Made by a program: the position numbers and the translations under genes
In this document: piece by piece, positions 3,199-17,790 of the stretch
Position numbering within the stretch: the stretch's first letter is position 1
Layout: every line of letters starts with the position of its first letter
Notes under the pieces: model-generated
What the model was told of the DNA's origin: nothing
The model's input: the letters and a program-made list of their open reading frames with translations, nothing else
Databases searched by the model: none
DNA from: a virus
Length of the DNA: 23,414 bases
Strand: one strand, 5' to 3'
UHGV virus genome: UHGV-0114356

Positions 3199-4718
3199 GG
3201 CCTTAAGACCAGCGTTATACCCGGTGATACGCCGTAAACGCGCCCTGACAGGCGTTCATCTGCAAACGCAAATACGGTGCCCGGCACGAATACAAAGCCA
3301 TCAAGTCCAGTCTGAAGCGTGATAATGCGGTCAAGGGAGTTGGAATACACCGCCCACCCGCCACGCCGCTGCGCCTCGCTCTCACGCGTACAACCGATCG
3401 CAGTGATTTGTGTCTGCTTAAACTTGAACTGCCTTACCAGTTCCGGAAACATCACTGCCGTGGTGCGGTCCTGGTAGTGGTTATCCGGATCGCTGAAGTT
3501 AATCAGCGCGCTGGAGAATCGGTTTTTCTCACTGCCACTCGAGTACACCGGCTTACCCACCACTGATGCGCGAGTGAGGATCTGCAACTTCGTAGTGTCC
3601 GCCGGCATGTCAGAGACAACATTGAACATGTTGTTGCCCCAGAAAGTCATTCCGTTGAAGCCCGCGGCAATATCTTTAATCACCTGCCAGGCATCAGCCT
3701 GGGACTGGATGTAAACGTCAAACATGAAGCGTGGCTCGGTACCGCTTCCGCCTTTCCCGTCGGGTACCTTCTGGTCGCAGCGCTGGGCGATGCGATAGAT
3801 CTCCCACTTATCGAGCATTTCTGGCGTCACGCGGCGCCCAAGGCCGAAGCGCGGCTCAGTCAGAACATCGAACCAAATCCACGCCGGGTTATTCGTCCAG
3901 CCCCATTTAAACGTCCCGTCCCATGTTCCGCTATAAGTCCGCGCTATTGGATCATAGTTCGAAGGGATTCGGATGATGCGCCCCTTCGGCATGCAGGAAA
4001 TCTTAGGGATGTTGTTGAATGACTTTGCGTTAAAGGACACGTACAGCAGCGCTGTGTGTGGATATCGCAGGCGAGCATCGATCACTTCAGTAATCGCTTG
4101 CACCTGCGTTTTGTTCTGCAGCATCTGGCTGGTGCTGTCATCGGTGTCACGCACCACTCGAATTTGCCAGCCAGTGCTGGCTTTGGGAAGATTAATACGG
4201 TGGGTTAGTTCATAGAGCGAGCTGAGCTTCTCTGTGACGGTTTTCGTCATGACTGTCGAGTAAGCGCCACCGTCCACCGCCAGATCAATATGGTACTGAA
4301 CCGTAGTGCCGACAATATCCCCATCGTTTTCCTGCTGCTGTAACCCAGGGATGCCAATACGAACCAGCACCGCGTCAATCTGGGTGTTACTCAGTGCGCG
4401 GGTCCATGGTGTGGCCTTTGTCAGCGATACCCCAACCGTAGTTTCATTCTCGACTGCAGGGAATCCCGGTATTGGTGTCTGGGTCTGTGTGCCAGGCCGG
4501 AAATCCCATGACACATTTTCAAAATTCATCGTTCCGTCGGGGTTTCCCAACGGCGTACCGTCCAGGAATATCCGGGTCGCATCCAGGCCACCAGCAAACT
4601 CCCCCTCCCCGAGCGCCAGCAGCATGCGGCAGCGCGCCATTGACTGAGCCGAATCGGGCTGTTCTACAGGTGTGTGCTGCTTCTGGCTGCCACCCTTTGC
4701 ACCAGTGATCGCTTCCAT
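3195..4718 (-). CDS. J: host specificity protein J, N-terminal fragment 1 of 3
   Basis: N-terminus MEAITGAKGGSQKQHTPVEQ resembles lambda gpJ MGKGSSKGHTPREAK; conserved blocks LQNKTQ, IPSNYDP, YSGTWDGTFK, EPRFGLG, CDQKVPDG. Ends prematurely relative to lambda J (about 1130 aa). Confidence 0.8.
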   Translation of the reverse strand: MEAITGAKGGSQKQHTPVEQPDSAQSMARCRMLLALGEGEFAGGLDATRIFLDGTPLGNPDGTMNFENVSWDFRPGTQTQTPIPGFPAVENETTVGVSLTKATPWTRALSNTQIDAVLVRIGIPGLQQQENDGDIVGTTVQYHIDLAVDGGAYSTVMTKTVTEKLSSLYELTHRINLPKASTGWQIRVVRDTDDSTSQMLQNKTQVQAITEVIDARLRYPHTALLYVSFNAKSFNNIPKISCMPKGRIIRIPSNYDPIARTYSGTWDGTFKWGWTNNPAWIWFDVLTEPRFGLGRRVTPEMLDKWEIYRIAQRCDQKVPDGKGGSGTEPRFMFDVYIQSQADAWQVIKDIAAGFNGMTFWGNNMFNVVSDMPADTTKLQILTRASVVGKPVYSSGSEKNRFSSALINFSDPDNHYQDRTTAVMFPELVRQFKFKQTQITAIGCTRESEAQRRGGWAVYSNSLDRIITLQTGLDGFVFVPGTVFAFADERLSGRVYGVSPGITLVLRP

Positions 4719-4727
4719 ATTACATCC

Positions 4728-4753
4728 ATAAAAAAAGCACCCAATTGGGTGCT
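4728..4753 (-). terminator. intrinsic terminator/attenuator between I and J
   Basis: Minus-strand hairpin agcaccc-aatt-gggtgct (4736-4753) followed by a 7-T tract (plus-strand A run 4730-4736), just upstream of the J start. Confidence 0.5.
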
Positions 4754-4772
4754 TGATATTCAGAAAGGAGTT

Positions 4773-5366
4773 TTAGATGTCTTCTGCGACTATGCCGGCA
4801 CTGATGATGGCGCCGCCAATCTCGCGCTCACCATAAAGAAGCGCGACCGGGTTACCCATCGCAAGGGTATTCACCGATCCACCGAAGGCATATGATGGTT
4901 TATTGTCAGGATCGTCTCGCCCCTGTAGTCCTTTGGGCTGGGGAGAAAGCATCTGGTAAATTCCTCCAGCCATCATTCCGATACCAGCGGAGACCATTCC
5001 CGCGCCAATGACACCTGCTGAACCGAACGTCATGCCCGTGACGACGATGCCCGCCACAACCATGACAGCACCCAATATCGTCTGGAACAAACCAGCTTTT
5101 TTTGCCCCTTCCATCACTGGTGCTATGCGAATATCGGTGCTTCCGGCCAGGTTCTTAAAATCATCCGCGCCAATGTTGCGCCTGCCGCGAAACACCGCGA
5201 ACGTCATGCCATTCTTTTTGGCGTTCAGAAGATAGCTTTCCAGCCCGTCCAGGTTGATGCAAAGCGCCTTTACCGCCTCAGCTGATGTCTGCACCGCCAG
5301 CCTGTGAACACGGCCAAACCGGGCTCCCAGCACACCGTACAATCGAATCGTGGTTAAACGCGCCAT
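4773..5366 (-). CDS. I: tail assembly protein I
   Basis: 197 aa; N-terminal MARLTTIRLYGVLGARFGR resembles lambda gpI (MARICLYGDLQRFGRR); Gly/Ala-rich hydrophobic C-terminal half as in gpI. AGGAG RBS upstream of ATG 5366; overlaps the K 3' end. Confidence 0.8.
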   Translation of the reverse strand: MARLTTIRLYGVLGARFGRVHRLAVQTSAEAVKALCINLDGLESYLLNAKKNGMTFAVFRGRRNIGADDFKNLAGSTDIRIAPVMEGAKKAGLFQTILGAVMVVAGIVVTGMTFGSAGVIGAGMVSAGIGMMAGGIYQMLSPQPKGLQGRDDPDNKPSYAFGGSVNTLAMGNPVALLYGEREIGGAIISAGIVAEDI

Positions 5367-6085
5367 GGCTGAATCTCCTGCGGTAGCTCTTTGTGACGGA
5401 CGCAGATCATCGTCCTGTCTTTGAAATAACCGCGCGCATACGGCGTGATGCAGGATGGCTGCCCGTACAGATGGTGAAGCAGTTCACCTTCCTCGGTAAT
5501 GATCCCCGCGTGGTTCCACTTACTGGATTCAACCTGCATGATGACCATACAGCCTGGCGACGTGTCGCATTCGACAAACCCTTCCCGCTCCCAGTTGTCG
5601 AAATACAGGTTGTCCGGGTACTGGCTTTCCCACCATGGGTAATCGACGCGGAAATCGTTAAGCTTCACGCCTTGGGTGGCATGCCAATCCATTACCAGTC
5701 CCCAGCAGTCATTTGAGCCCAGGATAAACGGACGCCCGATAAGGGGTACCGCCTCCGGCATTATCTCAGCGTATTCGTCGCTATCCGGCGCGTAAATACC
5801 CCAGACCACGCCGGAGTTGTTGCATTGCTGGCGATCCAGATCGGATGGAATCGGCCTTGCTCCATCGCCAGGATGGGAATGGATGACGCGCACAATCGTC
5901 CCGATATCTTCGGCGTTCGCCCAATGCTCGCCATCGATGCGGAAATGCTCTGTTGGATTTTCGTGAGTGTTTGGTACAGGAATATAGCGCTGGCGACGGC
6001 CAGACTGAATAACGAATCCGCAGCTCTCGCGCGGGGATTCATCCAGTGCATGCGCCCGGATAGCTGCCATTATGGTTTTATTCAT
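5354..6085 (-). CDS. K: tail assembly protein K (JAB/MPN plus NlpC/P60-like)
   Basis: 243 aa; JAMM-type motif VIHSHPGDGARPIPSDLD and a Cys/His pair (NDCWGLVMDWHA) typical of lambda gpK-family proteins; position between L and I. Confidence 0.85.
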   Translation of the reverse strand: MNKTIMAAIRAHALDESPRESCGFVIQSGRRQRYIPVPNTHENPTEHFRIDGEHWANAEDIGTIVRVIHSHPGDGARPIPSDLDRQQCNNSGVVWGIYAPDSDEYAEIMPEAVPLIGRPFILGSNDCWGLVMDWHATQGVKLNDFRVDYPWWESQYPDNLYFDNWEREGFVECDTSPGCMVIMQVESSKWNHAGIITEEGELLHHLYGQPSCITPYARGYFKDRTMICVRHKELPQEIQPWRV

Positions 6086-6097
6086 TGGTACGTCCGG

Positions 6098-6868
6098 TTA
6101 TCTGGAAAAAAGCACGGTGGCTGGATAGCCCCCAAAATCAAGGGTCGCGGTATTAGGCTCTGCCAGCCCGGCACCAAACCGCTTACGGCAGTCACTCAGG
6201 CAGCCGCCGCACACATCCAGCGCCGGGTCAGCGACAGGATTACCCTTCGCATCAAAATACGCCGTGCCGTTGTAGGTGCATCCATCGCCGCTCCGGTACT
6301 GCCCGCGTAGCGCCCATTCGCAGAGCGAGGTGATTTGTCTGGTTGGGATAACAAGCCCCTGCAAGTCTGCGGGGCTACTGAGTGACCAGGTAACTACCTC
6401 GTCGTCTTCGGAGGTTTTGGTGTCAAGCCAGAAGGTCTGAAGTGTGAACATTGACGAATCAGCTGTAGGGTTTGCGCCACCAGGGTAATTCACAGCATCG
6501 AGATAGACCGCATAGGTATCGATAATGCTCACCCTGGCGTTAACCATGTCCTTAAATTGGAGGCACAGCGCCGTGATATGACCGTCGAGGTTTGAGACGC
6601 TGAGAGACGGCTCCGCCGCCTGGTCTGTTGAAAGCTCCAGGCCTGCTACCTGAAACGGCCAAAAATCGTAGGTATTGCCACCGAATACGATTGGCTTTGG
6701 TCCGAGCTTTTCTTCATCACCATTGGCAGCGTCGATCTCTTCCGGTGTATGGGGGAAAGGTGCGTAGTGGAAACGGTGAATACCGCCACTGAACTCTGAG
6801 GCGTCAACTTCAACCAGGCGTACTCTGCCACCCGGTGCCAGCATCGCCGCCTGATCGACTAATGCCAT
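6098..6868 (-). CDS. L: minor tail protein L
   Basis: 256 aa; blocks YLDAVNYPGGANP and CLSDCRKRFG correspond to lambda gpL (FLDAVNFVNGNSYADP, CSKCLSGCKFRNN). Start ATG overlaps the M stop (TAATG). Confidence 0.85.
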   Translation of the reverse strand: MALVDQAAMLAPGGRVRLVEVDASEFSGGIHRFHYAPFPHTPEEIDAANGDEEKLGPKPIVFGGNTYDFWPFQVAGLELSTDQAAEPSLSVSNLDGHITALCLQFKDMVNARVSIIDTYAVYLDAVNYPGGANPTADSSMFTLQTFWLDTKTSEDDEVVTWSLSSPADLQGLVIPTRQITSLCEWALRGQYRSGDGCTYNGTAYFDAKGNPVADPALDVCGGCLSDCRKRFGAGLAEPNTATLDFGGYPATVLFSR

Positions 6869-7218
6869 TATGCATACACTCCGTAAGCCCGTTTGATGGT
6901 GAACGTCAATTCAGCAAACTTGCTGCTGATCTGATTTTTCCGTACGGAATCGGCGACTACCCGATAAAGCCCCTTCTCTTCTCCCGGCGGCGTGATGATG
7001 AAGGCCTTCACGGTATGAGCCAGGAGGAAGTCGCGCACTGCGTTTACCTCAGACTCACTGCCAACGTGTTTCATTGGCACCTGGATCGCCGTGGAGTTGA
7101 TGCCGTTCTCGGCCACCTGCTCATAGCCATCACCGAACTGCGCAGCGCGCACCGTTTGACTATATTCAATCGCCCCAGCACCGAGCTGCGAGCGCCAGCT
7201 GTATGTTTCAACTGCCAT
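6868..7218 (-). CDS. M: minor tail protein M
   Basis: Internal ATG at 7216-7218 with GGAG RBS (rc of 7219-7230 = tatggagtaaat) gives MAVETYSWRSQ...; FGDGYEQ matches lambda gpM FGDGYSQ. The longer track ORF (start 7269) runs through the upstream terminator, so it is not used. Confidence 0.75.
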   Translation of the reverse strand: MAVETYSWRSQLGAGAIEYSQTVRAAQFGDGYEQVAENGINSTAIQVPMKHVGSESEVNAVRDFLLAHTVKAFIITPPGEEKGLYRVVADSVRKNQISSKFAELTFTIKRAYGVYA

Positions 7219-7229
7219 ATTTACTCCAT

Positions 7230-7255
7230 AAAAAAAGCCCCGCGTATGCGAGGCT
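7230..7255 (-). terminator. intrinsic terminator after the moron gene, immediately upstream of M
   Basis: Minus-strand hairpin agcctcgca-ta-cgcggggct (7236-7255; one mismatch, one G-U) followed by a 7-T tract (plus-strand A run 7230-7236). Confidence 0.55.
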
Positions 7256-7305
7256 CTGTGTCGGTTCAAAGTATGGGCGATACTTTGTAATAAACTGAGA
7301 ACGGT

Positions 7306-7698
7306 TTAACTTCCATTCATTTCGACAAGCCGGTAATCAGTTTTCCCATCCTTGTCTTCAATGCATTCAGCTCTGAATTTCTGCTCAAGACCAAATTTGT
7401 TTTTAGCGCTAAATTCCTGCGTCGCGTAGAACTTACCGTCATTGCCGAGCCATCTGTTAGAGCCAAACGCCGACATATCCAGGGTGCTTTTATTGATCAC
7501 TGACTTTCTAACGTAAGCTTCACAGGCATTACGAAGTTCATCTAATTTTTTATCTGCAAGTTCCTTGGCTTCTTTTTGCTTTTTTTCTTGCTCGGTTGGT
7601 TTATTAACCACCGCTGCAACAAAAATCACAACAAGAAGAAGCAGCAACAGCCCAATGGTTCTTAGGATCTTCTTGATTATTTTATTTAACACAATCAT
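7306..7698 (-). CDS. membrane-anchored moron protein (130 aa), function unknown
   Basis: N-terminal basic stretch then one hydrophobic helix (ILRTIGLLLLLLVVIFVAAVV), a Lys/Glu-rich linker and a C-terminal domain with two Cys. Visibly AT-rich relative to flanking H and M; own terminator downstream; sits where lambda has no gene. Confidence 0.6.
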   Translation of the reverse strand: MIVLNKIIKKILRTIGLLLLLLVVIFVAAVVNKPTEQEKKQKEAKELADKKLDELRNACEAYVRKSVINKSTLDMSAFGSNRWLGNDGKFYATQEFSAKNKFGLEQKFRAECIEDKDGKTDYRLVEMNGS

Positions 7699-7748
7699 CC
7701 CCTGATCATTATGGTTTTCAACATATTAACCAGGGGGTGACGTAAACA

Positions 7749-10700
7749 CTACCTGCCTTTGCTGAAGTTGTAGATCATGCCACCCGGTTTAAGCTGTTTC
7801 TGAACTACCTGCAGTGCGGCATTCTGCATTTCCTCGGCAAGCGCGCGCCCCATGGCATCACCAGAACTGGAAGTTTGCGTTGTAACCGAACCACCAGCAT
7901 CTACGTTAACAGTGGTATTGATAATCGGGGCCATCCCGCCGCCACCCTGGGCACGTACCCCCAAGCGCCCGGCAGAGTCCCGAGTTAGGGGCATGATTGC
8001 TTCAGCACCAGCCTCTGCGAAGACGCCGCCTTTCGCAAACTTAGATGCGCCCTGGAAGGTGAAATGCTGAGGAGTGTCGTAAACACCGTTCACATATTTA
8101 CTGAGGCCAGGAGAGTCATAGACACCACCTTTAGCATTGAAGGTTACGCCAGCAGCGGCGTTTGCATATGCACCACCAGGCGTGCTGCCACCGCCACTGC
8201 CACCGCTTATCCAGCCCATCGCAGCCTGCACCGCATAGGCAACCATCAGCCTGTTTGTCACCTCAACAATCATCTTCAGCATCGATTCGCCGAATTCTTT
8301 TATTGAGGCTTTTCCCGTCGTCATTAAGCTGGTTAGCATGTCAGATAGACCTGTCAGCGTCGAACTAGCCACGTTCTTCACTGCGTCGTAGGTGTTGGTA
8401 GCGGCATCCAGATATTCATTCCATCCAGCAACAGCCCCAGACTTCCAGTCGCCGCGCAGCTTATCCTCTTCAGAGTAATAATTTCTGAGGGCTGCCAGTT
8501 CTTTCTCATAGCCAGCATCATCAAGCTTACCACCACCGTTGAGCCAGCCTTGGCGGAGCTGAGCCTCTTCCATCATGCGCTGGCTCTGACGGCTGCTTAG
8601 GCCTGCGCTGCCTCGCAACGCTTCTGTCTTTTCCGACATCTGCGTGACGTATTTATTCGCCTGCTGCGCCAGGCCATTAATCTTCTGCTGCGCCTCTACT
8701 TCCTTGTTCTTCTGATCCACCACCTTGGCGGCGTTCAGAATGGCCTCACGGCTCGACAGTAGAGATTTCTCCTGGGCGGTCAGCGCTCGTGTTTTGGCAG
8801 CCTCATCCAATTCAGCAAAGCGAGATTGCTGTTTGCTGAATTCGGTATATCTGACCTGCGTCTCCCCAGTCTTGCGCAACGTTTCGAGTGTTTCAGTTAA
8901 CGTTCTGGCCTGGGCACGGTAGTTCTCAAGAGTGCGATCGCCAGCATCCAGCGTGGCTTTTGCCTCTTTGGTCTTTTTGGCTGAGTCTTGTGCAAGCTTC
9001 GAGACTGCGTCTCTTGATTCTCGACTTGTTCCGCCATCACCTTTTACGTTAGACCCTCGCGCTTCAGCCTCATAGTTTGCCTGTGCGTTAGGCGCAGTGA
9101 CGCGCTTCCAAAGCTCGTTATAGCGTTTTTTGTTCGCCTCAATCTCTTTGTCCGCTTCCGCTCCAGCCTTTTTCATTGCCTCAACGTCCATGCCGAGGAA
9201 ATTAGCCAGCGCACCGCCACCCGGGATTTTGTCTGCCCAGCCAGCGATGGTGCTGGTGAACTTGGCGTCCAGAGAGGTGATATTGAGGAACAAGTCTTTG
9301 ATCGAGGACTTAACCAGTTCGAAGATATCGATGATCTGGTTTCCCCAGGCGCGCACGGTAACCCCGATTTGACCGAAAATGTCGGAGGAGAAAGCTTTAA
9401 TCCCGTTCCACGCCTTCCCGATATTATCGGTGGCCTCTACAATTTTATTACTGCGATCCTCCATGGTGTCGGCAAAAAGCGTTATAGCTTCGTTTGCCGC
9501 TGCTGTTTTCCCCTTCGTTTTCTCCAGGGTAATGAGGTGCTTCATCATGGCTTCATCAACAAAGCCATATTGCTGGTTCAAGCTCGCCAGGGCTTTAATA
9601 GGATCGTTTGCCAGTCGTGAAAAATCCGCCAGCGCAGCCTTCGTATCCAGCCCTGCATCACCCATAGCCAGAATGGATTTGGCAATTTTGGTCATCTGGT
9701 CGGCGGTATACTTCCCGGTGTCGTTTAGTTGGACCAGGGTATCAACAGACTCAGCCAAAGAAGCACCAGCGTTATCAGCAACATCCTTTGCCGCGTCGTT
9801 CAGTTGCTGCATGGAGGAAAAGCCAGCCCCGCCCATCAAAATGAGCGATCTGGCAACATTGTCGAACTGCTGGGATGAACTGTAGGCAGCCCCAGCCAGA
9901 AGAGCCAGCAAACCCACCGAGCCAGCAATCGCAAGGTTAAAGGTATTTAACAGGCCACCCGCCCGCCCCAGCTTCTCCGCTGCCTCACTGGTGTTGTTAA
10001 GTCCTTCAGCAGCGTCACTTATGCCTGCTGCCGACTCGGATGTTTCTCTGCTCTCTTCGTTAAACCCAAACAATGCGTCCCGCAAAGCCTGGAGCATTGG
10101 GCCTAATCCACCAAAAGAATCCTTAATTTGCCCGCCTTGCTGGAGCAAGATCAGGAAAGGGGATTGGCCTCCAGCCAACTGTGTCGCGATATCGGTGAAC
10201 TGCGCCGGCAGAGTGCGCAGCGCGGCGCTGTACTGGCCAACGGAAATTCCAGCACGCCGGGCAGCAGCTTCCTGCCGGGATAGCGCCTCTGGCAGCACGT
10301 CAGCCACGCCAGAGAGCCGTTCACGCGTCTGGTTGAGGATGGTGTTGAAATGTTCGAACTGGGTGCCGTTAATGCGCCCCGCTTCGAAGTGTGCCACCAG
10401 CTGCGCATGCTGCTCGTCCAGCGAGTTGAATGCGCGGATCGTCGGGTCGATGGAGCCGAGAAGGTTTTTCAGCGCTGCCGACTGTTTCTCAGCAGCCTGG
10501 GTGGCTGCCAGTTCAGCCTGGGCCCGCATTGATGCCTCAGCGGTTTCACCGAGTTTTTGCCGGGTGTTATCCAGTATTGTCTGGTAACTCTTAAACTCCT
10601 CAGTATTGAGAAATCCCCCCGCATGGAATCTCTGCAAAGCAACCTGCTGGTCCTCGAGCTTTTCCAGCGCAATCAGCGTGGGGTTGATGTTCTCCAACAA

Positions 10701-10904
10701 TCCCTTCAGCGCAGCCTGCTGCTCTTTTGCCCCTTGGGCACCCTGCTTGCCAGCTTCAGCGCCGGCACGAAAAACACTGTTAAGGTCATCCGCTTTATCG
10801 ACAGCACCGGCCGCCGCCTGACCGAGTTTATCCAGCTCATTACTGGCTGTTTTCAGGTCAGAAACATCGGCCCGCAAAGTAATCGAGGCGATCTGGTCTG
10901 TCAT
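7749..10904 (-). CDS. H: tail tape measure protein
   Basis: 1051 aa, Ala/Gln/Glu-rich helical and repetitive, Gly-rich C-terminal part; AAGGAG RBS before ATG 10904; located between G-T and M as in lambda. Confidence 0.9.
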   Translation of the reverse strand: MTDQIASITLRADVSDLKTASNELDKLGQAAAGAVDKADDLNSVFRAGAEAGKQGAQGAKEQQAALKGLLENINPTLIALEKLEDQQVALQRFHAGGFLNTEEFKSYQTILDNTRQKLGETAEASMRAQAELAATQAAEKQSAALKNLLGSIDPTIRAFNSLDEQHAQLVAHFEAGRINGTQFEHFNTILNQTRERLSGVADVLPEALSRQEAAARRAGISVGQYSAALRTLPAQFTDIATQLAGGQSPFLILLQQGGQIKDSFGGLGPMLQALRDALFGFNEESRETSESAAGISDAAEGLNNTSEAAEKLGRAGGLLNTFNLAIAGSVGLLALLAGAAYSSSQQFDNVARSLILMGGAGFSSMQQLNDAAKDVADNAGASLAESVDTLVQLNDTGKYTADQMTKIAKSILAMGDAGLDTKAALADFSRLANDPIKALASLNQQYGFVDEAMMKHLITLEKTKGKTAAANEAITLFADTMEDRSNKIVEATDNIGKAWNGIKAFSSDIFGQIGVTVRAWGNQIIDIFELVKSSIKDLFLNITSLDAKFTSTIAGWADKIPGGGALANFLGMDVEAMKKAGAEADKEIEANKKRYNELWKRVTAPNAQANYEAEARGSNVKGDGGTSRESRDAVSKLAQDSAKKTKEAKATLDAGDRTLENYRAQARTLTETLETLRKTGETQVRYTEFSKQQSRFAELDEAAKTRALTAQEKSLLSSREAILNAAKVVDQKNKEVEAQQKINGLAQQANKYVTQMSEKTEALRGSAGLSSRQSQRMMEEAQLRQGWLNGGGKLDDAGYEKELAALRNYYSEEDKLRGDWKSGAVAGWNEYLDAATNTYDAVKNVASSTLTGLSDMLTSLMTTGKASIKEFGESMLKMIVEVTNRLMVAYAVQAAMGWISGGSGGGSTPGGAYANAAAGVTFNAKGGVYDSPGLSKYVNGVYDTPQHFTFQGASKFAKGGVFAEAGAEAIMPLTRDSAGRLGVRAQGGGGMAPIINTTVNVDAGGSVTTQTSSSGDAMGRALAEEMQNAALQVVQKQLKPGGMIYNFSKGR

Positions 10905-11547
10905 TATTTCGTCTCCTTGTGCATTACCTTGAGAGCCTCGCTTTCCATAATTTGAAGGTCAGCCATGCAGGCCGCCGCATCCTCAACCCCGTGTAACTCG
11001 AACATCCAGGGGAGAACGTTGTAATCAAGGCCGGTCGCCCCGCTCGCGCCGACTCGCCACTGGGTCGCCAGGGAAGAGAAGATGGTGAAAGACTTCCACA
11101 CAGAGGGCAGGATCCCCACCTCTTCCTCCACGTCCTCAGGCGTCAAACCAAAAGCGCTCAGCTCCGCGAGCGTCGGCCCCGGCGTATACAACGCTGCGGC
11201 GACCTGCCTCAGTTTTTTTCGCGGATACCCATAAGCTCTTTGGTGTAGGCCAGACCGATGCTGTCGAACGCGCGAGGATAGTTCTTCAGGAGGACAATTA
11301 CGTTATCGCGGGTGAACTCGTCAGGTAGTGCCCACCCCTCGACAATTTCCATGAGGTAGTCGGCCTGTGGCTCGATAGCATCCTTTTTACCTTCGGCGGC
11401 CTTTTGCAGCTTCTCGTCCATGGAGCGCAGCTCTCCCAGCGTCTTATGGCGGAAAGTGAACGTCAGCTTGCCGTCTTCGGCGCCAGCGCGCGGAATGCTC
11501 GCGGTCACAGAAAAAGTTGGGTTGGGGATCAGGGAAAATTTGGTCAT
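10904..11547 (-). CDS. tail assembly chaperone G-T fusion, made by -1 programmed frameshift (T-like C-terminal part 10904-11218)
   Basis: The -1 frame downstream of the slippery site is open from the G body through the 95-aa T-like ORF (...KKLRQVAAALYTPGPTLAELSAFGLTPEDV...LPSVWKSFTIFSSLATQWR...); the T ORF has no good start of its own (TTG). Arrangement as lambda G/GT. Confidence 0.6.
11209..11547 (-). CDS. G: tail assembly chaperone G
   Basis: ATG 11545-11547 with AGGAA RBS (rc of 11548-11560) gives MTKFSLIPNPTF... (113 aa), ending IREKN; acidic small protein directly after the major tail gene. The longer track ORF (start 11634) overlaps V and is not used. Confidence 0.7.
   Translation of the reverse strand: MTKFSLIPNPTFSVTASIPRAGAEDGKLTFTFRHKTLGELRSMDEKLQKAAEGKKDAIEPQADYLMEIVEGWALPDEFTRDNVIVLLKNYPRAFDSIGLAYTKELMGIREKN
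11212..11218 (-). other. slippery heptamer A-AAA-AAC for -1 ribosomal frameshifting (G to G-T)
   Basis: Minus-strand cgc-gAA-AAA-AAC-tga at the 3' end of G (plus-strand 7-T run 11213-11219); fits the X-XXY-YYZ rule and lies 3 nt before the G stop. Confidence 0.6.
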
Positions 11548-11581
11548 TTCGATTCCTAAGAAAGACTTTGGTTTCAGTAGC

Positions 11582-11604
11582 AAAGAAAGCCCGGCGTACC
11601 GGGC
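11582..11604 (-). terminator. intrinsic terminator/attenuator after major tail gene V
   Basis: Minus-strand hairpin gcccgg-tacg-ccgggc (11589-11604) followed by tttcttt (plus-strand aaagaaa 11582-11588), between the V stop and the G start. Confidence 0.5.
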
Positions 11605-11612
11605 TCGAGTGG

Positions 11613-12545
11613 TTAGCTGACCGTGACGGTGCAAGCAGCAGAGGTGATAGTTTTGCCCGCCGCGTCAGTGACTTCGCAGGTGTAAGAGCCAGCATCACCG
11701 GATGCCACAGATGGAATGTTGAACGTCGAGGCGGTTTTGCCCGGAATTGCGGAGCTTCCTTTCTTCCACACGTAGGTGTAAGGGGCTGAGCCGCCTTGCA
11801 TAACGACGGCTAAATCGAGCGCATCTCCAACACTAACTGCTTTGGTTGATGGCAGATCAGTCAGGAACGCCAGCGGCGTAACGGATGAATCGGCGATCGG
11901 GTAAATCTGCATATCCGATTCGAAGTTCATGCGCGCTTCGTTGCTTTCCACGGCGTTGATTTCGGTCTTAGGCACCTTCTGGAAAGACACTTTGGCAGAG
12001 TAATAACGGTCCGCTTTGCCGCGCGGGTTATGGAACCACACAGCAGTGGTGTCGCTGGATTCGTCAAGTTCACTCAGACGCTTGTAAATTGCCAGCAGCG
12101 GATCGTGCGCGAAGGTGTAGACCTGCACCACGGCGTTTTTGAAGGTCGGGATGGTACGGGCCTTATCGTCTTCAAGGAACTGCACGCTGATGGTCTGCTG
12201 GTCACCACCCTCTGTGGAGAGGGTCATCACCTGCGGCATCGTGATCCACGTGTCGATTTTACGCAGCGTGCCCGCGCCAGTGCCTGCCGGGAATTTGGTG
12301 GTGTCAGAGGTATCGAACGAATCCAGCACGATTTTGGTACCGGCTACGGATTTAACGCGCAGCACCATATTATCGAGTTTTAGCCAGCCGGAGCTCACCT
12401 GCACTACGTCGCCCGCCAGGATGCCAGCGGCAGATGCAACAGTCAGTTCGCATTCAGTAGCGTTAGAGGCAGCGGTAAAGGTGATGGGAGCCTGATAGGC
12501 CTTGGCCACGTTAACACGCGAGCCGTTAGGGATTGCGAATGCCAT
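11613..12545 (-). CDS. V: major tail protein V with C-terminal Ig-like (Big_2-type) domain
   Basis: 310 aa; AGGAGA RBS before ATG 12545; C-terminal ~90 aa (...YTYVWKKGSSAIPGKTASTFNIPSVASGDAGSYTCEVTDAAGKTITSAACTVTVS) has the Ig-like pattern seen at the C-terminus of lambda gpV; position upstream of G/GT/H. Confidence 0.85.
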   Translation of the reverse strand: MAFAIPNGSRVNVAKAYQAPITFTAASNATECELTVASAAGILAGDVVQVSSGWLKLDNMVLRVKSVAGTKIVLDSFDTSDTTKFPAGTGAGTLRKIDTWITMPQVMTLSTEGGDQQTISVQFLEDDKARTIPTFKNAVVQVYTFAHDPLLAIYKRLSELDESSDTTAVWFHNPRGKADRYYSAKVSFQKVPKTEINAVESNEARMNFESDMQIYPIADSSVTPLAFLTDLPSTKAVSVGDALDLAVVMQGGSAPYTYVWKKGSSAIPGKTASTFNIPSVASGDAGSYTCEVTDAAGKTITSAACTVTVS

Positions 12546-12566
12546 AGCACTCTCCTGAATTTAGGT

Positions 12567-12591
12567 AATAAAAAACCCGCCATCTGGCGGG
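12567..12591 (-). terminator. intrinsic terminator between tail terminator gene and V
   Basis: Minus-strand hairpin cccgcc-agat-ggcggg (12576-12591) followed by ttttttatt (plus-strand A run 12570-12575), immediately after the stop at 12592. Confidence 0.5.
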
Positions 12592-13041
12592 TCAGTAGTC
12601 AGCGCGGTACTGCATGCTGACGGGAATGGTGTAGGTTATGGAGCCACTGGACCCGTTGGACGCCGAGGTTGGCCGGTCCTGGATGGGTTGTCTCACCTGC
12701 GGCGGCCCATTGATATAAACAGTCAGGTCACCATCTACCAGCGCAAGCCCTTCAGGAAACGCATCAGCGACAGATTTAGCCAGCCCTCTGGCCTGCGTCA
12801 CGCCGCTGCCTGCTGGCGCAATGATGTTGAGCTGCAGGATGCCCTGATAGGTTCGCAATTGACCTTCCAGGTCTTGCCCCACCGTCTGTGCCGGCAGAAC
12901 ATAAACACGCCCGTATGGTGAGCTATCCGGGGGAGTAAACGGTATGTTCGGCCAGGCTACGGGCAGCCCAAGCGATAAGCAGATAACCGCAATGCGGCTC
13001 TCCAGTAGTTCAGCAATTCGCATTGACTGGTCACTGGCCAT
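12592..13041 (-). CDS. putative tail terminator protein (gpU-like by position)
   Basis: 149 aa; GAGGTG RBS before ATG 13041; directly upstream of the major tail gene, the position lambda U occupies. No sequence similarity to lambda U recognised by eye. Confidence 0.4.
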   Translation of the reverse strand: MASDQSMRIAELLESRIAVICLSLGLPVAWPNIPFTPPDSSPYGRVYVLPAQTVGQDLEGQLRTYQGILQLNIIAPAGSGVTQARGLAKSVADAFPEGLALVDGDLTVYINGPPQVRQPIQDRPTSASNGSSGSITYTIPVSMQYRADY

Positions 13042-13630
13042 TGCGCACCTCGCTCATTGCCTCACGGAACAACTGCGCGGCATCCAGCGCAGTGATGCCC
13101 ACCATGCCGCCGGGTGCCTGGCCGGAATGCCCGTTCTCCAGTGCTGCCGCATATGGCAGATTATTGGTGAAGAAAATCGAGCTGACCTGCCCTACCCGGA
13201 ACACCTCGAGCACTGCCAGACCGCGGGAGTTGGAACCCTGGCCGGAAGCGTCGGGGGTGTCGTTGGATTGGCTTGGCTGGCTGTCAAAGCCCACATACCA
13301 GTTGTTTTTAAACCGCCCGCCGACATAGCCCTCAGGCTTTTTGATGTCCATCGAGTCGTTGACGCGCAGGCCGCGCTTAAGTCGTCCTGATTTGGTCAGA
13401 TTAGCCGGGTCATCACGCAGGGTCGCGTTATGCTCCCGCACCGCAGTGTTGTACGCCGTCGCGGTCTGGTTGACCTGCCAGATATCCGGTTGGCCCACCG
13501 GGGACATCTCAACCAGTTGAGCGAGGATTTTAATACCCGTCCGGCGCACCACCTCGTCCATCTCCTGCTTCGAGCCATCCACGAACAGCTGAATGGCAGC
13601 CAGGAACGGCTGATTAACAGACCCCACCAT
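13031..13630 (-). CDS. putative tail completion / head-tail joining protein (gpZ-like by position)
   Basis: 199 aa; translationally coupled to neighbours (overlapping stop/start); size and position match lambda Z. Family not verified. Confidence 0.4.
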   Translation of the reverse strand: MVGSVNQPFLAAIQLFVDGSKQEMDEVVRRTGIKILAQLVEMSPVGQPDIWQVNQTATAYNTAVREHNATLRDDPANLTKSGRLKRGLRVNDSMDIKKPEGYVGGRFKNNWYVGFDSQPSQSNDTPDASGQGSNSRGLAVLEVFRVGQVSSIFFTNNLPYAAALENGHSGQAPGGMVGITALDAAQLFREAMSEVRNGQ

Positions 13631-13632
13631 AG

Positions 13633-13986
13633 TTACGCCCTCAGTTGGATGTTGTAGGAAATCAGCACATCGGCAGGCTTAACCGGATTCGGCTGCACCA
13701 CGCGCCATTTTTTGCCGTCGATTTCGATGCGGTCATCGATGCGCACTTCCGTCTCGAAAGTGGCCGCCAGCTTCTTGTCGCCGGTGGCGATCAGGGAACC
13801 GTCGATTTCGCGGGAGGAGTATTCGGTGATAACACCGGTTACGGTCGCGGTAATGGCCGGGGTGGTGACCTCTTTGCCGAACTGGTCACGGATGGTGCCG
13901 CCGCCGCGGGTAAGCTGATATGCCTTCCCGTTCTCGGTCAGCAGTCGGGTCGCGGTCGCGCGCATGCGGCGGTAGTCGATTGGCAT
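13633..13986 (-). CDS. putative head-tail joining (neck) protein
   Basis: 117 aa, same size and relative position as lambda FII; no motif recognised. Confidence 0.35.
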   Translation of the reverse strand: MPIDYRRMRATATRLLTENGKAYQLTRGGGTIRDQFGKEVTTPAITATVTGVITEYSSREIDGSLIATGDKKLAATFETEVRIDDRIEIDGKKWRVVQPNPVKPADVLISYNIQLRA

Positions 13987-13987
13987 G

Positions 13988-14470
13988 TCACCCCCTTTCG
14001 ATGCGGATCTGATTGCCGCCCACCACTAGCCCACGCAGCGAGGAATAGAACCAGGGGAATGACGGCGAGGCCTTATTGGTTCCCGGCTCGTACTGCACGG
14101 TCACCGCGCCCTCTACGCGCTCCATCGTCACCGCCCCGCCACCAGCAACCGAAGGCGTGAGGTCAATCTCCTGCGATTCGATAGCCAGGCGACATTGAGC
14201 ATCAACCACGCGCTGTGGAATAGCATCGTCCGGAAGGTCAACGCCATCGAAGCGTAAGCCCGAGCGCGGCCACGACAGCGGCTGTGATGCGCTGGAACGC
14301 TGGCCACGCCATGTTTTGCCTTCCAGAAAGTCCATCGCCTGCATCAGCATCTGGCTGCATTCGCCATCTTCAGCAGGGATGGTGTATCCGCGCCCCGCAG
14401 CGAACGCGCGCAGATCACCAACGCTGGCATAGCTGTTGAAGTCAGACGAATGGGGATCGGCATTAATCAT
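13988..14470 (-). CDS. putative head-tail connector/adaptor protein
   Basis: 160 aa; N-terminal YASVGDLRAFAAGRGY...W...LSWPRSG pattern recalls phage head-tail connector families; position after the capsid gene cluster. Confidence 0.4.
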   Translation of the reverse strand: MINADPHSSDFNSYASVGDLRAFAAGRGYTIPAEDGECSQMLMQAMDFLEGKTWRGQRSSASQPLSWPRSGLRFDGVDLPDDAIPQRVVDAQCRLAIESQEIDLTPSVAGGGAVTMERVEGAVTVQYEPGTNKASPSFPWFYSSLRGLVVGGNQIRIERG

Positions 14471-14483
14471 CTCAGAGCTCCTC

Positions 14484-14795
14484 TCAGGCTTCGAAAAGCT
14501 TCTGCTTTAACGCATATCCCATCAACGCCCACAACTCGCTTTCGGCGTTCTCAATAGCAATTTTCTCGCCAATTTCAGCGTTGTCGTTAGCGGAGGAAAC
14601 TGAGCACGACGGATTCCCTGTTACTGCGAATCCGTTTTGAGTGGTGATGACCGCCCAGCGAAGCACCTGCCAGGTGACGGATACGTGCTTCACGATCTCG
14701 GCATGCTTAATATTCGCCTTCAACTCGCCCAGCGTAACGCGCGGCGCGTTCAAGCCTTTGGCCTGAATTTCCTGCTCAATATCTTTATCGCTCAC
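14484..14795 (-). CDS. conserved phage hypothetical protein (103 aa)
   Basis: Continuous ORF in the operon frame context; no family assigned with confidence. Confidence 0.45.
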   Translation of the reverse strand: MSDKDIEQEIQAKGLNAPRVTLGELKANIKHAEIVKHVSVTWQVLRWAVITTQNGFAVTGNPSCSVSSANDNAEIGEKIAIENAESELWALMGYALKQKLFEA

Positions 14796-14797
14796 AG

Positions 14798-15019
14798 TTA
14801 CTCCTCCAGTCGCCAGTCCAGCGCCAGCCAGTTATCGACTTCGTCAGGGTGAACCTCAGCGCTCAGCGGACCGCCGGGGAACTCTGGCTCGTCACGCACC
14901 ATTACCACCAGCTCAATACCCTGCGGTTCCTGCGGGGCAGGAGTTTTTACATCACCACTCTGCGCGGCAAGCTTTTCAGCCTCACGCTGTGCGCGCTGTT
15001 CTTTGGTTAATCCGGCCAT
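14798..15019 (-). CDS. small acidic hypothetical protein (73 aa)
   Basis: ATG 15017-15019 with strong AGGAGG RBS (rc of 15023-15028), immediately after the capsid-gene terminator; MAGLTKEQRAQREAEKLAAQ...; the listed TTG start at 15037 lies inside the terminator stem and is not used. Confidence 0.45.
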   Translation of the reverse strand: MAGLTKEQRAQREAEKLAAQSGDVKTPAPQEPQGIELVVMVRDEPEFPGGPLSAEVHPDEVDNWLALDWRLEE

Positions 15020-15030
15020 TGGGCCTCCTG

Positions 15031-15052
15031 AAAACAAAGGGGCCGAAGCCCC
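15031..15052 (-). terminator. intrinsic terminator/attenuator after the major capsid gene
   Basis: Minus-strand hairpin ggggc-ttcg-gcccc (15039-15052) followed by tttgtttt (plus-strand aaaacaaa 15031-15038), directly after the capsid stop at 15058. Confidence 0.5.
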
Positions 15053-15057
15053 TATGG

Positions 15058-16194
15058 TTAACCCATGATGATGGCGGAATGTTCAGGCTGAACGGATGCC
15101 ACACCCCATGCCACACCAACCTCGTAACGTACCTGGCGGTACTGGCGGTACAGCGCGATCTGGAAGGTGATGCCGGATGCTGGGTCGGTCACGTTCATCA
15201 CATCGTCGGCGGTATCGCCGCCTTTTGGCATTGCCGGGGTGCGGCACGCCAGCAGGAATGCGTTGCGGTCGAACGCCATGTTTGGCGCAAACTCGCTCAG
15301 CACAGTGACGGCTGCCTGGTCTGCCAGATCCTGACGCAGACCCGGCGCACCAATGGTGATGCTGGAAGAAGTGGCGGCAACGACCAGATACTGATTGTCA
15401 TCACCATCGAATTTCACTGCGGTGCCGACTGCAATCCCACCAGTACCTGCAGAGATAGCAACGATGATGTCGCCTTCTTTCTTCGCACCGTTGACCTTGT
15501 AGCCTGCGGCGGTGCTTTTCGCGGTACGCTTGATGTTGGCGGATTCATGCAGGTTGAAGCCCATCACGCGACCGATGATGCCTTCGCGCAATAGCTGGTC
15601 GGTACCGGCTTCATTCGCTTTGAACAGCACGGACTGCTTACCACGAATGGAGGCCATCGCTTCACCGCCCAGCACCATACGCAGGTCGGTAGTTGGCGCA
15701 CCGTTATCAACCAGAATCTGGCGAGCCAGCGCTGCATCAGACAGATCGTCTTTGATGCTGAATGGCGTATCTTTCGGCGCACCGACAGCGCGAGAGGATT
15801 TGTAGTACAGCGCCGCCAGATCAGCATCCATCTCATTGCTCAGCGCGCGGAAGGCCTGAGAGAACTGGTCAGCCAGGATGACGTCGTAATTACCTGACGG
15901 CCCGATAGCCAGCTGTTCTTCACCGTTCCATTTGACCGGGGCCATTTTGGATTTGGTGATTTTGACATCCACGGTACCGATGTTCTGATCGCCATCGTTC
16001 GGTGCGGTCGCTGCGGGGGTGATATCGACGGTGGTGGTTTTTGGTGCCACCGGCGCGGTGACGGTCTGGTCTTTAGCCGCAGCGTCAGCTTTCGCGTTGC
16101 GCGCAACGGCAGGGATGAAGCCCACCTGCTCGCGGGATACGCGGTTCAGTGCGGTGTACAGAGTAGGAATCAACCCAGTAAGCGTATTGCTCAT
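15058..16194 (-). CDS. major capsid protein
   Basis: 378 aa, the abundant structural gene following a scaffold-like gene and followed by an attenuator; AAGGA RBS before ATG 16194; Ala/Gly/Val-rich composition typical of HK97-fold capsid proteins. Fold not verified. Confidence 0.75.
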   Translation of the reverse strand: MSNTLTGLIPTLYTALNRVSREQVGFIPAVARNAKADAAAKDQTVTAPVAPKTTTVDITPAATAPNDGDQNIGTVDVKITKSKMAPVKWNGEEQLAIGPSGNYDVILADQFSQAFRALSNEMDADLAALYYKSSRAVGAPKDTPFSIKDDLSDAALARQILVDNGAPTTDLRMVLGGEAMASIRGKQSVLFKANEAGTDQLLREGIIGRVMGFNLHESANIKRTAKSTAAGYKVNGAKKEGDIIVAISAGTGGIAVGTAVKFDGDDNQYLVVAATSSSITIGAPGLRQDLADQAAVTVLSEFAPNMAFDRNAFLLACRTPAMPKGGDTADDVMNVTDPASGITFQIALYRQYRQVRYEVGVAWGVASVQPEHSAIIMG

Positions 16195-16213
16195 ATTCTA
16201 AATATCCTTTCGA

Positions 16214-16966
16214 TTAATCGACGATGCTGACGCCATTGCTCAGTGCAGCCTGCTTGCCTGCGCCATCCAGAGCGTCGAACGCACCGCGTTTCATGGTTTT
16301 TTGCCCGGCCTGATGCTGCGACTGGTGAGAGCCGCCGCCGCTGTTACCGGACGCTTTGAGGATGTAATCTTTCTGCGGATGCGACTCGACCAGAGACTCC
16401 AGGGCCTCATCAAAGCTGGCTAACTCGCCGGGCTTGGTGCGTGAGAACACCTTATTGCCCTGGCCGTCGTAGGCCACAACCTTCCCTTCTTCGATTTTGA
16501 AGTTCTGACCGAAGTAGGAACGCACGAACTCAGTCGGGATCGCCATCTTCTCGGAAATGAACTTAGAGCCACCGAAGCGGCCGCCGATCATCTCGTCGTA
16601 GAGTTGAGTTTCCAGCTGTTTGGTCTTGCCGTTCGCCTCGTCCAGTTGCTGTTGGAAAACTTTGGTGATCTCCGCCTTTACCTGGTCAACGGCACCAGCA
16701 TCGATCAGTTTTTTCTGGTCGATTTTGGTCATCATCTCCAGGGCTTCGAGCGCCTTGGCCGGGTCGGTGATGCCAGAGAATTTCGCGAGATTGGCTTCCG
16801 CCGCTTCCTTCGCTTCGCGGTGAGTTTTCGCCTCGCCATTCAGGGAGGTGATTTTGGTCATCGCTGCGACCGCATCGAACGGGATCTCTTTGCCATCATC
16901 ATGGATGTACACAGGCATACCGTTTTCAACGACCACATTTCCGTTAGCATCAAGTTTCAGTTTCAT
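16214..16966 (-). CDS. putative capsid scaffolding protein
   Basis: ATG 16964-16966 with GGAG RBS (rc of 16967-16980 = gctggagcaaaaca) gives MKLKLDANG...; helical, charged, Lys/Glu/Ala-rich; located directly upstream of the capsid gene. The track start at 17005 has no RBS. Confidence 0.55.
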   Translation of the reverse strand: MKLKLDANGNVVVENGMPVYIHDDGKEIPFDAVAAMTKITSLNGEAKTHREAKEAAEANLAKFSGITDPAKALEALEMMTKIDQKKLIDAGAVDQVKAEITKVFQQQLDEANGKTKQLETQLYDEMIGGRFGGSKFISEKMAIPTEFVRSYFGQNFKIEEGKVVAYDGQGNKVFSRTKPGELASFDEALESLVESHPQKDYILKASGNSGGGSHQSQHQAGQKTMKRGAFDALDGAGKQAALSNGVSIVD

Positions 16967-17044
16967 TGTTTTGCTCCAGCCTTCCGGCCATACGTAATGG
17001 GTCATCCGACCCGGGCACCGCGTCGCATCCGCTCAGCGGCAGGC

Positions 17045-17069
17045 ATAAAAAAAGCTGCCCGGAGGCAGC
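17045..17069 (-). terminator. intrinsic terminator closing the two-gene insert
   Basis: Minus-strand hairpin gctgcc-tccg-ggcagc (17054-17069) followed by a 7-T tract (plus-strand A run 17047-17053), just after the stop at 17073. Confidence 0.55.
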
Positions 17070-17072
17070 CTG

Positions 17073-17282
17073 TTAGATAAATTCGACGGTTACTACGCCG
17101 CGCAGTTTGCGGGAATAGAACTCATCCCGCTTGCGCTTGTGGACCCGGAGTGGATATGGATAGAAGCATGCGATTCCTCGCTTAACATCCGCCCATATGC
17201 AGCGTTTGGCCTCGTTGCCGTTAACGAACACTCGGCGCTTACCGCGGCCATCGCCCACATGGTGAAAATCGTCATCTCGCAT
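17073..17282 (-). CDS. small basic hypothetical protein (69 aa)
   Basis: ATG 17280-17282 preceded by GGGGGG (rc of 17283-17297 = cttggggggtgttct); MRDDDFHHVGDGRGKRRVFVNGNEAKRCIWADVKRG...RVHKRKRDEFYSRKLRG, Arg/Lys-rich. Frame choice and start are uncertain. Confidence 0.4.
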   Translation of the reverse strand: MRDDDFHHVGDGRGKRRVFVNGNEAKRCIWADVKRGIACFYPYPLRVHKRKRDEFYSRKLRGVVTVEFI

Positions 17283-17305
17283 AGAACACCCCCCAAGCAA
17301 CTGGT

Positions 17306-17770: not shown

Positions 17771-17790
17771 TGTTTTATTACCTTATTCAG

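Follow-up and report, generated by a model that had tools for sequence, protein, structure and literature searches.

The late operon and its internal terminators

The window analysed here, i.e., the whole stretch of 23,414 nucleotides (nt) of the virus genome UHGV-0114356, carries a late (virion-structure) operon in which six intrinsic terminators are located between the genes. The sizeable open reading frames (ORFs) from ~22360 down to 869 all lie on the minus strand, in the order small and large terminase, portal, minor head protein, scaffold and P22-type coat protein, followed by the head-tail connectors, Z, U, V, G/T, the tape measure (H), M, L, K, I, and J. The best phage match to the window is Escherichia phage HK639, with 85.8% identity over 80% of positions 4000-18000, and the best Escherichia coli prophage matches reach ~94% identity. 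Positions 1-55 correspond to the E. coli core gene hcr with 100% identity in thousands of genomes, and the prophage homology begins at approximately position 47, so that the start of the window is a prophage/chromosome junction. Since the first 55 nt belong to hcr, the window represents one end of a prophage in the E. coli chromosome, namely the late operon of an HK639-like lambdoid prophage adjoining hcr. The GC content of the window is 54.5%.

The whole window was subjected to a consensus scan for terminator- and promoter-like sites, and to a second, custom scan that accepted perfect or one-mismatch stems, used ViennaRNA energies and required a T-rich tail. The top ranks of the consensus scan are occupied by six minus-strand sites composed of a hairpin and a T-tract, exactly at the places named in the original prediction, i.e., before J, before M, on both sides of V, after the capsid gene, and before the scaffold gene. 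All six occupy intergenic positions on the coding (minus) strand and have stems of 6-10 bp, tetraloops, and folding energies of -11.2 to -15.6 kcal/mol, which are not weak. In the custom scan, the coding strand contains 8 sites at a free energy (dG) <= -8 and 6 at <= -12, compared with means of 0.65 and 0.07 in 100 dinucleotide shuffles, and with 3 and 1 on the opposite strand, respectively. An eighth, weak site within gene I was set aside. Both scans and the shuffles therefore support the six predicted terminators, which are canonical intrinsic-terminator structures specific to the sense strand. A scan of the whole window against the known RNA families of Rfam at gathering thresholds returned zero matches. 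The original prediction had also described the terminators as unusually dense, a description that does not hold, since the same custom scan detects 6 late-operon sites in lambda, 5 in HK97, 4 in HK022, and 4 in N15 (each over ~18-19 kb) and 7-8 sites per 21.5 kb in the window, a density typical of the class.

In the direction of transcription, the first of these elements is T_scaf (17052-17071, minus strand), a hairpin AGGCTGCC-UCCG-GGCAGCUU of -13.9 kcal/mol followed by T7 (17053-17047), which marks the end of a variable slot containing a Tad2-like ORF and orf17073 and the start of a conserved leader, ~85 nt upstream of the true scaffold start at 16966. T_cap (15038-15053, minus strand; GGGGC-UUCG-GCCCC, -11.2 kcal/mol) begins 4 nt past the capsid stop codon and is followed by an interrupted T-tract (TTTGTTTTC) that leads into CAGGAGG, with which the next gene's Shine-Dalgarno sequence is provided. 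The major tail gene V is flanked by two hairpins on the minus strand. T_Vup (12574-12593), which consists of GACCCGCC-AGAU-GGCGGGUU and T6 (-14.6 kcal/mol), is located in the gap between the tail-terminator gene U and V, at distances of 1 and 30 nt, respectively, while T_Vdown (11587-11606), with the hairpin GAGCCCGG-UACG-CCGGGCUU and the weak, interrupted tract TTTCTTTG (-14.1 kcal/mol), lies 9 nt past the V stop codon. T_M (7234-7257, minus strand) is a 10-bp hairpin, AGAGCCUCGC-AUAC-GCGGGGCUUU, with a T-tract (-15.6 kcal/mol); it serves the low-GC accessory gene orf7306 as terminator, lies 17 nt before M, and is followed by ATGGAG, the M Shine-Dalgarno sequence, and by the M start codon at 7218. 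Finally, T_J (4735-4754, minus strand), composed of AAGCACCC-AAUU-GGGUGCUU and T7 (-12.7 kcal/mol), is placed 18 nt before the J start codon at 4718. The T6-T7 tracts are uninterrupted at T_J, T_M, T_Vup, and T_scaf. Five of the sites, i.e., all except T_cap, have orthologues annotated as terminators in HK639, and analogous positions are annotated in HK97 for T_Vup and in both HK97 and N15 for T_cap and T_J. Regarding the overall distribution of T-tracts, the whole window contains 14 runs of at least five T on the coding strand versus 36 on the other strand, and the three T7 runs of the coding strand are all terminator tails.

Conservation of the terminators across related prophages

A search of genome contigs with the V protein yielded 14 related prophages from the genera Enterobacter, Atlantibacter, Kluyvera, Leclercia, Silvania, Pseudescherichia, Yokenella, and Siccibacter, which together with three E. 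coli prophages and HK639 form a comparison set of 18 relatives from ~10 enterobacterial genera. The six terminator slots are filled in nearly all loci that span them, T_cap being kept in every relative spanning its site, and the T6-T7 tracts are intact family-wide at four of the six sites. Moreover, the stems are almost invariant while the loops vary freely, with nine different loops in the hairpin between U and V and seven in the hairpin before J. In the U/V hairpin, 99.1% of the cells are paired across 14 distinct sequences, including one pair changed from G-C to A-U by a double change in two sequences and two wobble changes, and sliding the 3' partner as a control lowers the pairing to 24-63%. 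Because the sequences are related, these pairing counts alone are modest evidence, and the contrast between fixed stems and free loops provides the stronger signal of selection on structure. Thus, the six terminators are under purifying selection. Comparison across related prophages, which had been proposed as a check of both the terminator positions and their shared motif, shows the positions to be conserved and the exact motif not.

Terminators as edges of accessory-gene slots

Breakpoints were defined as interruptions of at least 25 nt in chained BLASTN matches between the window and each relative. They coincide with three of the six terminators. Of 13 loci, 10 have a breakpoint 0-5 nt from the T_scaf 5' edge, and upstream of it the relatives have 9-868 nt of other DNA in place of the Tad2-like ORF and orf17073. 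The T-tract of T_Vdown has a breakpoint 0-5 nt away in 12 of 18 loci, and relatives show accessory cassettes of 0.7-1.4 kb inserted at this site, each with a second terminator immediately upstream of G. Within T_M, position 7239 is a breakpoint in 13 of 17 loci. No such coincidence was found at T_J, T_Vup, and T_cap. Therefore, three of the six terminators are seams of accessory-gene slots.

The slot between H and M illustrates how these regions vary. In the window, it is occupied by orf7306 (7306-7698, minus strand), which encodes a product of 130 amino acids (aa) with an N-terminal transmembrane helix, belongs to PHROG 35526 (function unknown), and has a GC content of 39.7% versus 54-56% for H and M. 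Relatives harbour from 0 to ~3 different genes here, H and M are adjacent in lambda, and HK639 carries genes for a lipoprotein, a hypothetical protein, and a YafO-family toxin in the position of orf7306. Together, orf7306 and T_M are moron-like, i.e., an extra gene of deviant composition with its own terminator. Morons are described as carrying their own promoter as well as terminator (PMC3594210); for orf7306, the sole candidate promoter is a weak 9/12 match at 7721-7694 whose -10 element overlaps the start codon. In the slot between the minor head protein gene and T_scaf, the Tad2-like ORF (17306-17770, minus strand; 154 aa) matches the Pfam family Tad2-like (Thoeris anti-defence 2) with E = 4.6e-20, and is absent from HK639 and several relatives. 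A further recurrent replacement cassette, at 14462-14921 on the minus strand, comprises orf14484 (Phage_gp49_66 family) and part of orf14798, and in contrast to the other slots it is not bounded by terminators.

The string shared by three terminators

The original prediction had called attention to an identical string at three of the terminators, and CATAAAAAAAGC is indeed present in exact copies at 4727-4738 (T_J), 7227-7238 (T_M), and 17044-17055 (T_scaf), compared with 0.17 expected in shuffles; no additional copies with one mismatch occur in the window. The J and M sites have the longer string GCTTTTTTTATGGA in common, and a side-by-side reading gives 21 of 24 nt alike up to the start codon. 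Nevertheless, stems and upstream flanks are unrelated among the three copies. The exact 12-mer occupies all three sites in this lineage only; HK639 has it just at J, and the scaffold slot reads GGCCT-T6-ATG in most loci. Outside the family, both HK022 and N15 have the same 12-mer upstream of J, and N15 has a further copy upstream of its capsid gene. The leader of the J slot was also considered as an unusually widespread E. coli sequence, an idea that was rejected since within E. coli it is limited to the 12 genomes carrying a prophage of this type.

The composition of the string can be read from its occurrences in other late arms. In these arms, the pattern [GC]T6-8ATG is confined to the coding strand, with 3 occurrences in HK97, 3 in HK022, 2 in N15, and 4 in HK639. 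Every T5+ATG in these arms has a GC hairpin on its 5' side and a start codon within ~10-15 nt on its 3' side, usually with a recognisable Shine-Dalgarno sequence in between. As a host baseline, 150 kb of E. coli K-12 provided 43 terminator-like sites, 29 of them with a clear T-run, which is followed by A in 20 of the 29 cases, by AT in 11, by ATG in 1, and by ATGG in 0. From this baseline, a T-run plus AT is a generic terminator tail. In 6 of 8 independent phage cases, a Shine-Dalgarno sequence (GGAG, GGGGG, or GGGTG) starts with the additional G, and at J and M the G that ends the 12-mer also opens the Shine-Dalgarno sequence of the next gene, which abuts the terminator because the genes are tightly packed. 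Thus, CATAAAAAAAGC consists of the stem-closing GC, T7, the usual AT and a G, and is no element of its own. If the 12-mer is assumed to occur at ~3/19 of late-operon terminators, the probability of 3/7 in one phage is ~0.08.

These results bear on the proposal that the shared string marks a propagated cassette boundary. What holds, in one sense, is the boundary itself, given that three terminators, two of them with the 12-mer, lie 0-5 nt from breakpoints beside accessory slots. The 12-mer as the propagated unit is not supported, in view of its unrelated stems, its lack of conservation, its generic parts, and its occurrence in HK022 and N15. Of the three copies, those at T_M and T_scaf coincide with breakpoints and that at T_J does not, whereas T_Vdown, without the 12-mer, does coincide, so that being a cassette boundary is a property of the terminators and not of the string. 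Homology beyond generic terminator features was not found for a repeat defined by the 12-mer, with stems and flanks unrelated and no Rfam family.

The conserved scaffold leader

Between the T-tract of T_scaf and the true scaffold start (ATG 16966) lies a non-coding scaffold leader of 85 nt (16967-17051, minus strand), with a mean pairwise identity of 97.6% in 15 loci versus 78.4% at the third codon positions of the scaffold gene. Together with T_scaf, it constitutes an ultra-conserved leader of 105 nt. An upstream ATG at 17005 was rejected as the scaffold start because its frame is broken by a 1-nt indel in three loci (L001, L004, and L005), and both the HK639 annotation and the PHROG match begin at the downstream ATG 16966. 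In the predicted consensus fold of the leader, UGCCU just after the T-tract pairs with the scaffold Shine-Dalgarno sequence. This alignment fold comes without covariation because there is almost no variation; the single-sequence fold is no stabler than shuffles (z = -0.53), and the leader has no Rfam match. In P22, scaffold synthesis is under post-transcriptional autoregulation. By analogy, the scaffold leader could be a cis element for a P22-like autoregulation of scaffold expression.

Proposed read-through and insulation, and alternative roles of the hairpins

The promoter scan found 4 promoter-like sites in the window versus 11.1 expected. Only one, which is weak, belongs to the coding strand, and convincing sigma-70 promoters inside the operon were not found. 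Because of this, the genes distal to the terminators depend on read-through. In HK639, a coding sequence for a Q-like antiterminator is followed by four terminators and then by the holin gene, upstream of the lysis and late genes, and two relatives (L002 and L003) have lysis genes upstream of terminase. Q-type complexes have been described as essentially termination-resistant (PMC9388147). The original prediction that full expression of the operon needs antitermination is accordingly supported by the lack of convincing internal promoters and by the Q-like gene of HK639, and corresponds to a textbook situation. In our view, the late-operon sites are probably selectively maintained Rho-independent terminators that are read through by Q-modified RNA polymerase and block the unmodified enzyme.

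Under this explanation, RNA polymerase modified by a Q-type antiterminator would start from a late promoter outside the window during lytic growth and pass all six sites, a read-through that we strongly infer from the phage family. In the lysogen, unmodified polymerase, including that arising from moron promoters or spurious initiation, would halt at the six sites, with the consequence that the virion genes would be kept silent and the accessory cassettes would be closed transcription units. The hairpins would persist in the read-through messenger RNA (mRNA), where they probably serve as exonuclease barriers or processing elements near the genes of the most abundant products (scaffold plus capsid, and V), and in this way may also stabilise or delimit segments of the late mRNA, a role with one comparative support. 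Moreover, three of the terminators double as fixed edges of slots where accessory cassettes are swapped.

Several observations weigh against this explanation or narrow it. Termination, read-through, and stabilisation at the six sites are all inferred, and neither the Q gene nor the late promoter is part of the window. Of 19 loci, 18 retain the hairpin downstream of V (GCCCGG-UNCG-CCGGGC), although five of these (L009, L011, L013, L014, and L016) lack the T-tract, and in two of the five (L011 and L016) the G gene is directly 3' of the hairpin; since the hairpin is kept and the T-tract lost, something besides termination is conserved at this site, a 3' barrier protecting the V mRNA being the obvious candidate. 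The insulation of morons does not directly explain T_J, T_Vup, and T_cap, since no accessory gene precedes them in this family. An ATG follows the T-tract in 8 of 18 independent phage slots versus 1 of 29 host sites (Fisher p = 0.001, in a post-hoc comparison); this enrichment is mostly accounted for by the abutting Shine-Dalgarno sequence, which is no explanation for a small residue consisting of the scaffold slot (ATGCCT) and the V slot of HK022 (ATGACC). Lastly, J is divided on the minus strand into three reading frames (3195-4718, 1483-3198, and 869-1480) with breaks at ~3230 and ~1480, the first frameshift being a 4-nt deletion (GGCG) near 3230 with reference to relatives L002 and L003, and J is one continuous gene in HK97 and in the EC09 relative. 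The latter also has tail-fibre genes downstream of J, which are absent from the window beside hcr. The prophage may be defective, or J may contain assembly errors, and the present function of the elements in this copy is uncertain because J is frameshifted and the tail-fibre region is missing.

The hairpins could instead act mainly at the RNA level, as 3'-exonuclease barriers or processing sites that set the amounts of late-mRNA segments, with termination being incidental, and we regard this as possible although not as the favoured explanation. The high-copy genes are the very ones enclosed by pairs of hairpins (T_scaf and T_cap around the scaffold and capsid genes, T_Vup and T_Vdown around V); the loops are often of the very stable UNCG type (UUCG, UACG, and UCCG); and the hairpin after V is kept with or without its T-tract, which also lends some support to the stabilising role that the original prediction had suggested. 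Nevertheless, the perfect T6-T7 tracts maintained family-wide at four sites would be needless for a pure stability hairpin, and T_J and T_M precede low-copy tail-tip genes. Furthermore, a role in the RNA is compatible with read-through by Q-modified polymerase and does not exclude it.

It is doubtful that moron insertions left the terminators behind as passive relics, with the 12-mer as a mobile cassette end or recombination linker that moved between slots. The proximity (0-5 nt) of breakpoints to T_scaf, T_Vdown, and T_M in the majority of relatives fits such an origin, as do the low GC content of orf7306 and the H-M slot, where at least four unrelated hairpin types are joined in relatives to one identical TTTTTATGGAG-N5-ATG tail. 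Moreover, one relative, L003, has a hairpin before M (AGCCACCTTCGGGTGGCT followed by a T-tract and ATGG) that is the same as the one preceding J in HK022. In addition, a stretch of 21 nt of the U/V hairpin, with its loop, has an exact counterpart in the terminator upstream of the HK97 major tail gene (gp12), the flanks being unrelated; HK97 has no detectable match to U, and V matches just in its C-terminal third. However, it is unproven that HK97-like and HK639-like phages exchanged the U/V hairpin, because the exact 21-mer, ACCCGCCAGATGGCGGGTTTT, is found in 49 IMG/VR contigs (L035-L083) in at least eight unrelated flanking contexts. Searches with short terminator queries also give matches of 80-90% in phages of Vibrio, Acinetobacter, and Yersinia. 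Convergence is an adequate explanation, since few sequences are possible for short GC stems with tetraloops in comparison with the number of terminators in databases, and the same short terminators evidently either arise repeatedly in different phages or are passed between them. The absence of breakpoints at T_J, T_Vup, and T_cap, the unrelated stems and flanks at the three 12-mer sites, and the lack of conservation of the exact 12-mer at all three of these sites in the relatives argue further against relics and linkers, and the strong conservation of the stems points to function.

A role as partial attenuators even of antiterminated polymerase, stepping down transcription for virion stoichiometry, is improbable. 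Some sites are suitably located, downstream of the capsid gene or ahead of M and J, which are low-copy genes, and partial termination is among the possibilities raised for phage L (PMC8022706). However, a strong terminator stands right before the abundant V, with no promoter-like site after it, where a step-down would be counter-productive, and Q-type complexes essentially resist termination (PMC9388147). We consider it similarly unlikely that the late-operon hairpins were selected mainly as RNA elements and recombination joints rather than as terminators, with the T_scaf leader perhaps autoregulatory. Such a reading would draw on the hairpin after V, retained in five lineages without its U-tract, and on the three hairpins that mark where accessory, anti-defence, and moron cassettes are exchanged. 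The idea that the ATG after the T-tract starts a regulatory mini-ORF or upstream ORF, namely the two-codon ATG-GAG-TAA that the original prediction noted at M and an ORF of 14 codons upstream of the scaffold gene, is scarcely credible, since, although such an ATG occurs in several slots of several phages and the scaffold-leader ORF ends in ATGA inside the conserved leader, the stop codon before M is confined to the window and four relatives (L002, L004, L007, and L012) and is replaced elsewhere by CAA or AAA, which open an out-of-frame reading into M, L008 has TTGGAG without an ATG, no Shine-Dalgarno sequence precedes these ATGs, the T-tract and hairpin being immediately upstream, and the substitutions of the scaffold-leader ORF are 2 non-synonymous to 1 synonymous in a reading of the alignment. 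The mini-ORF before M is thus not conserved as an ORF, and the conserved feature is TATGGAG, i.e., the Shine-Dalgarno sequence.

The hcr-proximal end of the window

Beyond the six intergenic sites, a seventh, bidirectional terminator is located at 846-862, where CCCCGC-loop-GCGGGG has a T-rich tail on either strand (minus strand, -11.4 kcal/mol; plus strand, -12.3 kcal/mol). It separates the end of the J frames from convergent plus-strand ORFs and is also present in one relative, L002. These plus-strand ORFs (344-610 and 607-837) occupy a low-GC (41%) stretch, converge on the end of J, and have no Pfam match.

Comparison with known lambdoid systems

The record of HK639 (NC_016158 / HM208537), with coordinates converted, marks terminators before the scaffold gene, V, G, M, and J, and after V. 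Given that five of the six sites have annotated orthologues in HK639 and that HK97 and N15 mark the same positions, the feature is already known, and the present result re-finds what has been annotated in lambdoid phage genomes since 2000 and in HK639. A literature search for HK639 together with terminators found nothing, and no Term-seq study of a lambdoid late operon was found in the literature. The small RNAs of enterohaemorrhagic E. coli prophages (PMC4104026), considered as a possible counterpart, concern the region adjoining the late promoter, i.e., other sites than these six. The use of the present analysis is therefore that of a comparative illustration, in which stems are fixed and loops are free, and half of the terminators are seams of accessory slots, one of them with a Tad2-like gene.

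HK639 is the closest system, with orthologous DNA, "regulatory: terminator" features at five of the window sites, and a Q-like antiterminator gene. It differs in that the site after the capsid gene is unannotated, though the hairpin is present, in that an extra gene with two flanking terminators lies between V and G, and in that three accessory genes are found between the tape-measure gene and M, where the window has one. The record of HK97 lists eight putative coding-strand terminators in the late operon; among other positions, they follow the major head gene and the gp15 moron, flank the major tail gene, and precede I and J. In the N15 record, putative rho-independent terminators flank the capsid gene, follow the major tail gene, and precede gene 21, the J homologue. 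HK97 and HK022 (records of Juhala et al. 2000) and N15 share with the window coding-strand terminators located past the major capsid gene, at one or both sides of the major tail gene, past morons, and right before J, as well as the layout of hairpin, T-run, ATGG(R)G, and start codon, and the exact string GCTTTTTTTATG is present in HK022 and N15. However, their head and tail-shaft genes are mostly non-homologous to those of the window, homology being limited to the C-terminus of V and to H, M, L, K, I, and J, with 30-60% amino-acid identity, and their hairpin sequences are others, save for the U/V hairpin common to HK97 and the window.

As in the morons described by Juhala et al. (2000) and Cumby et al. 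(2012, PMC3594210), orf7306 lies between genes that are adjacent elsewhere, has a deviant GC content, possesses its own terminator, T_M, and encodes a small membrane-anchored product, and it resembles HK97 gp15, which is also located in the tail operon. In contrast to morons, its promoter is at best the weak match described above, and three of the six terminators of the window come without an accessory gene. With the Q-dependent lambdoid late operons, the window shares one long co-directional operon with internal terminators and no evident internal promoters, and differs from them in that its Q, Q-binding site, and late promoter lie outside the window. A predicted terminator within a late operon with a single promoter has also been discussed in the P22-like phage L (Zaworski et al., PMC8022706), a podovirus with another gene order, for which one such site is discussed. 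Its authors noted that this intra-late-operon terminator is not unique and that its role is unknown (PMC8022706). For the terminators of the window, insulation in the lysogen, mRNA stabilisation, and control of stoichiometry are candidate roles. Internal late-operon terminators are, in sum, an ordinary and previously annotated feature of lambdoid phages, of which the HK639-like prophage beside hcr provides a further example.

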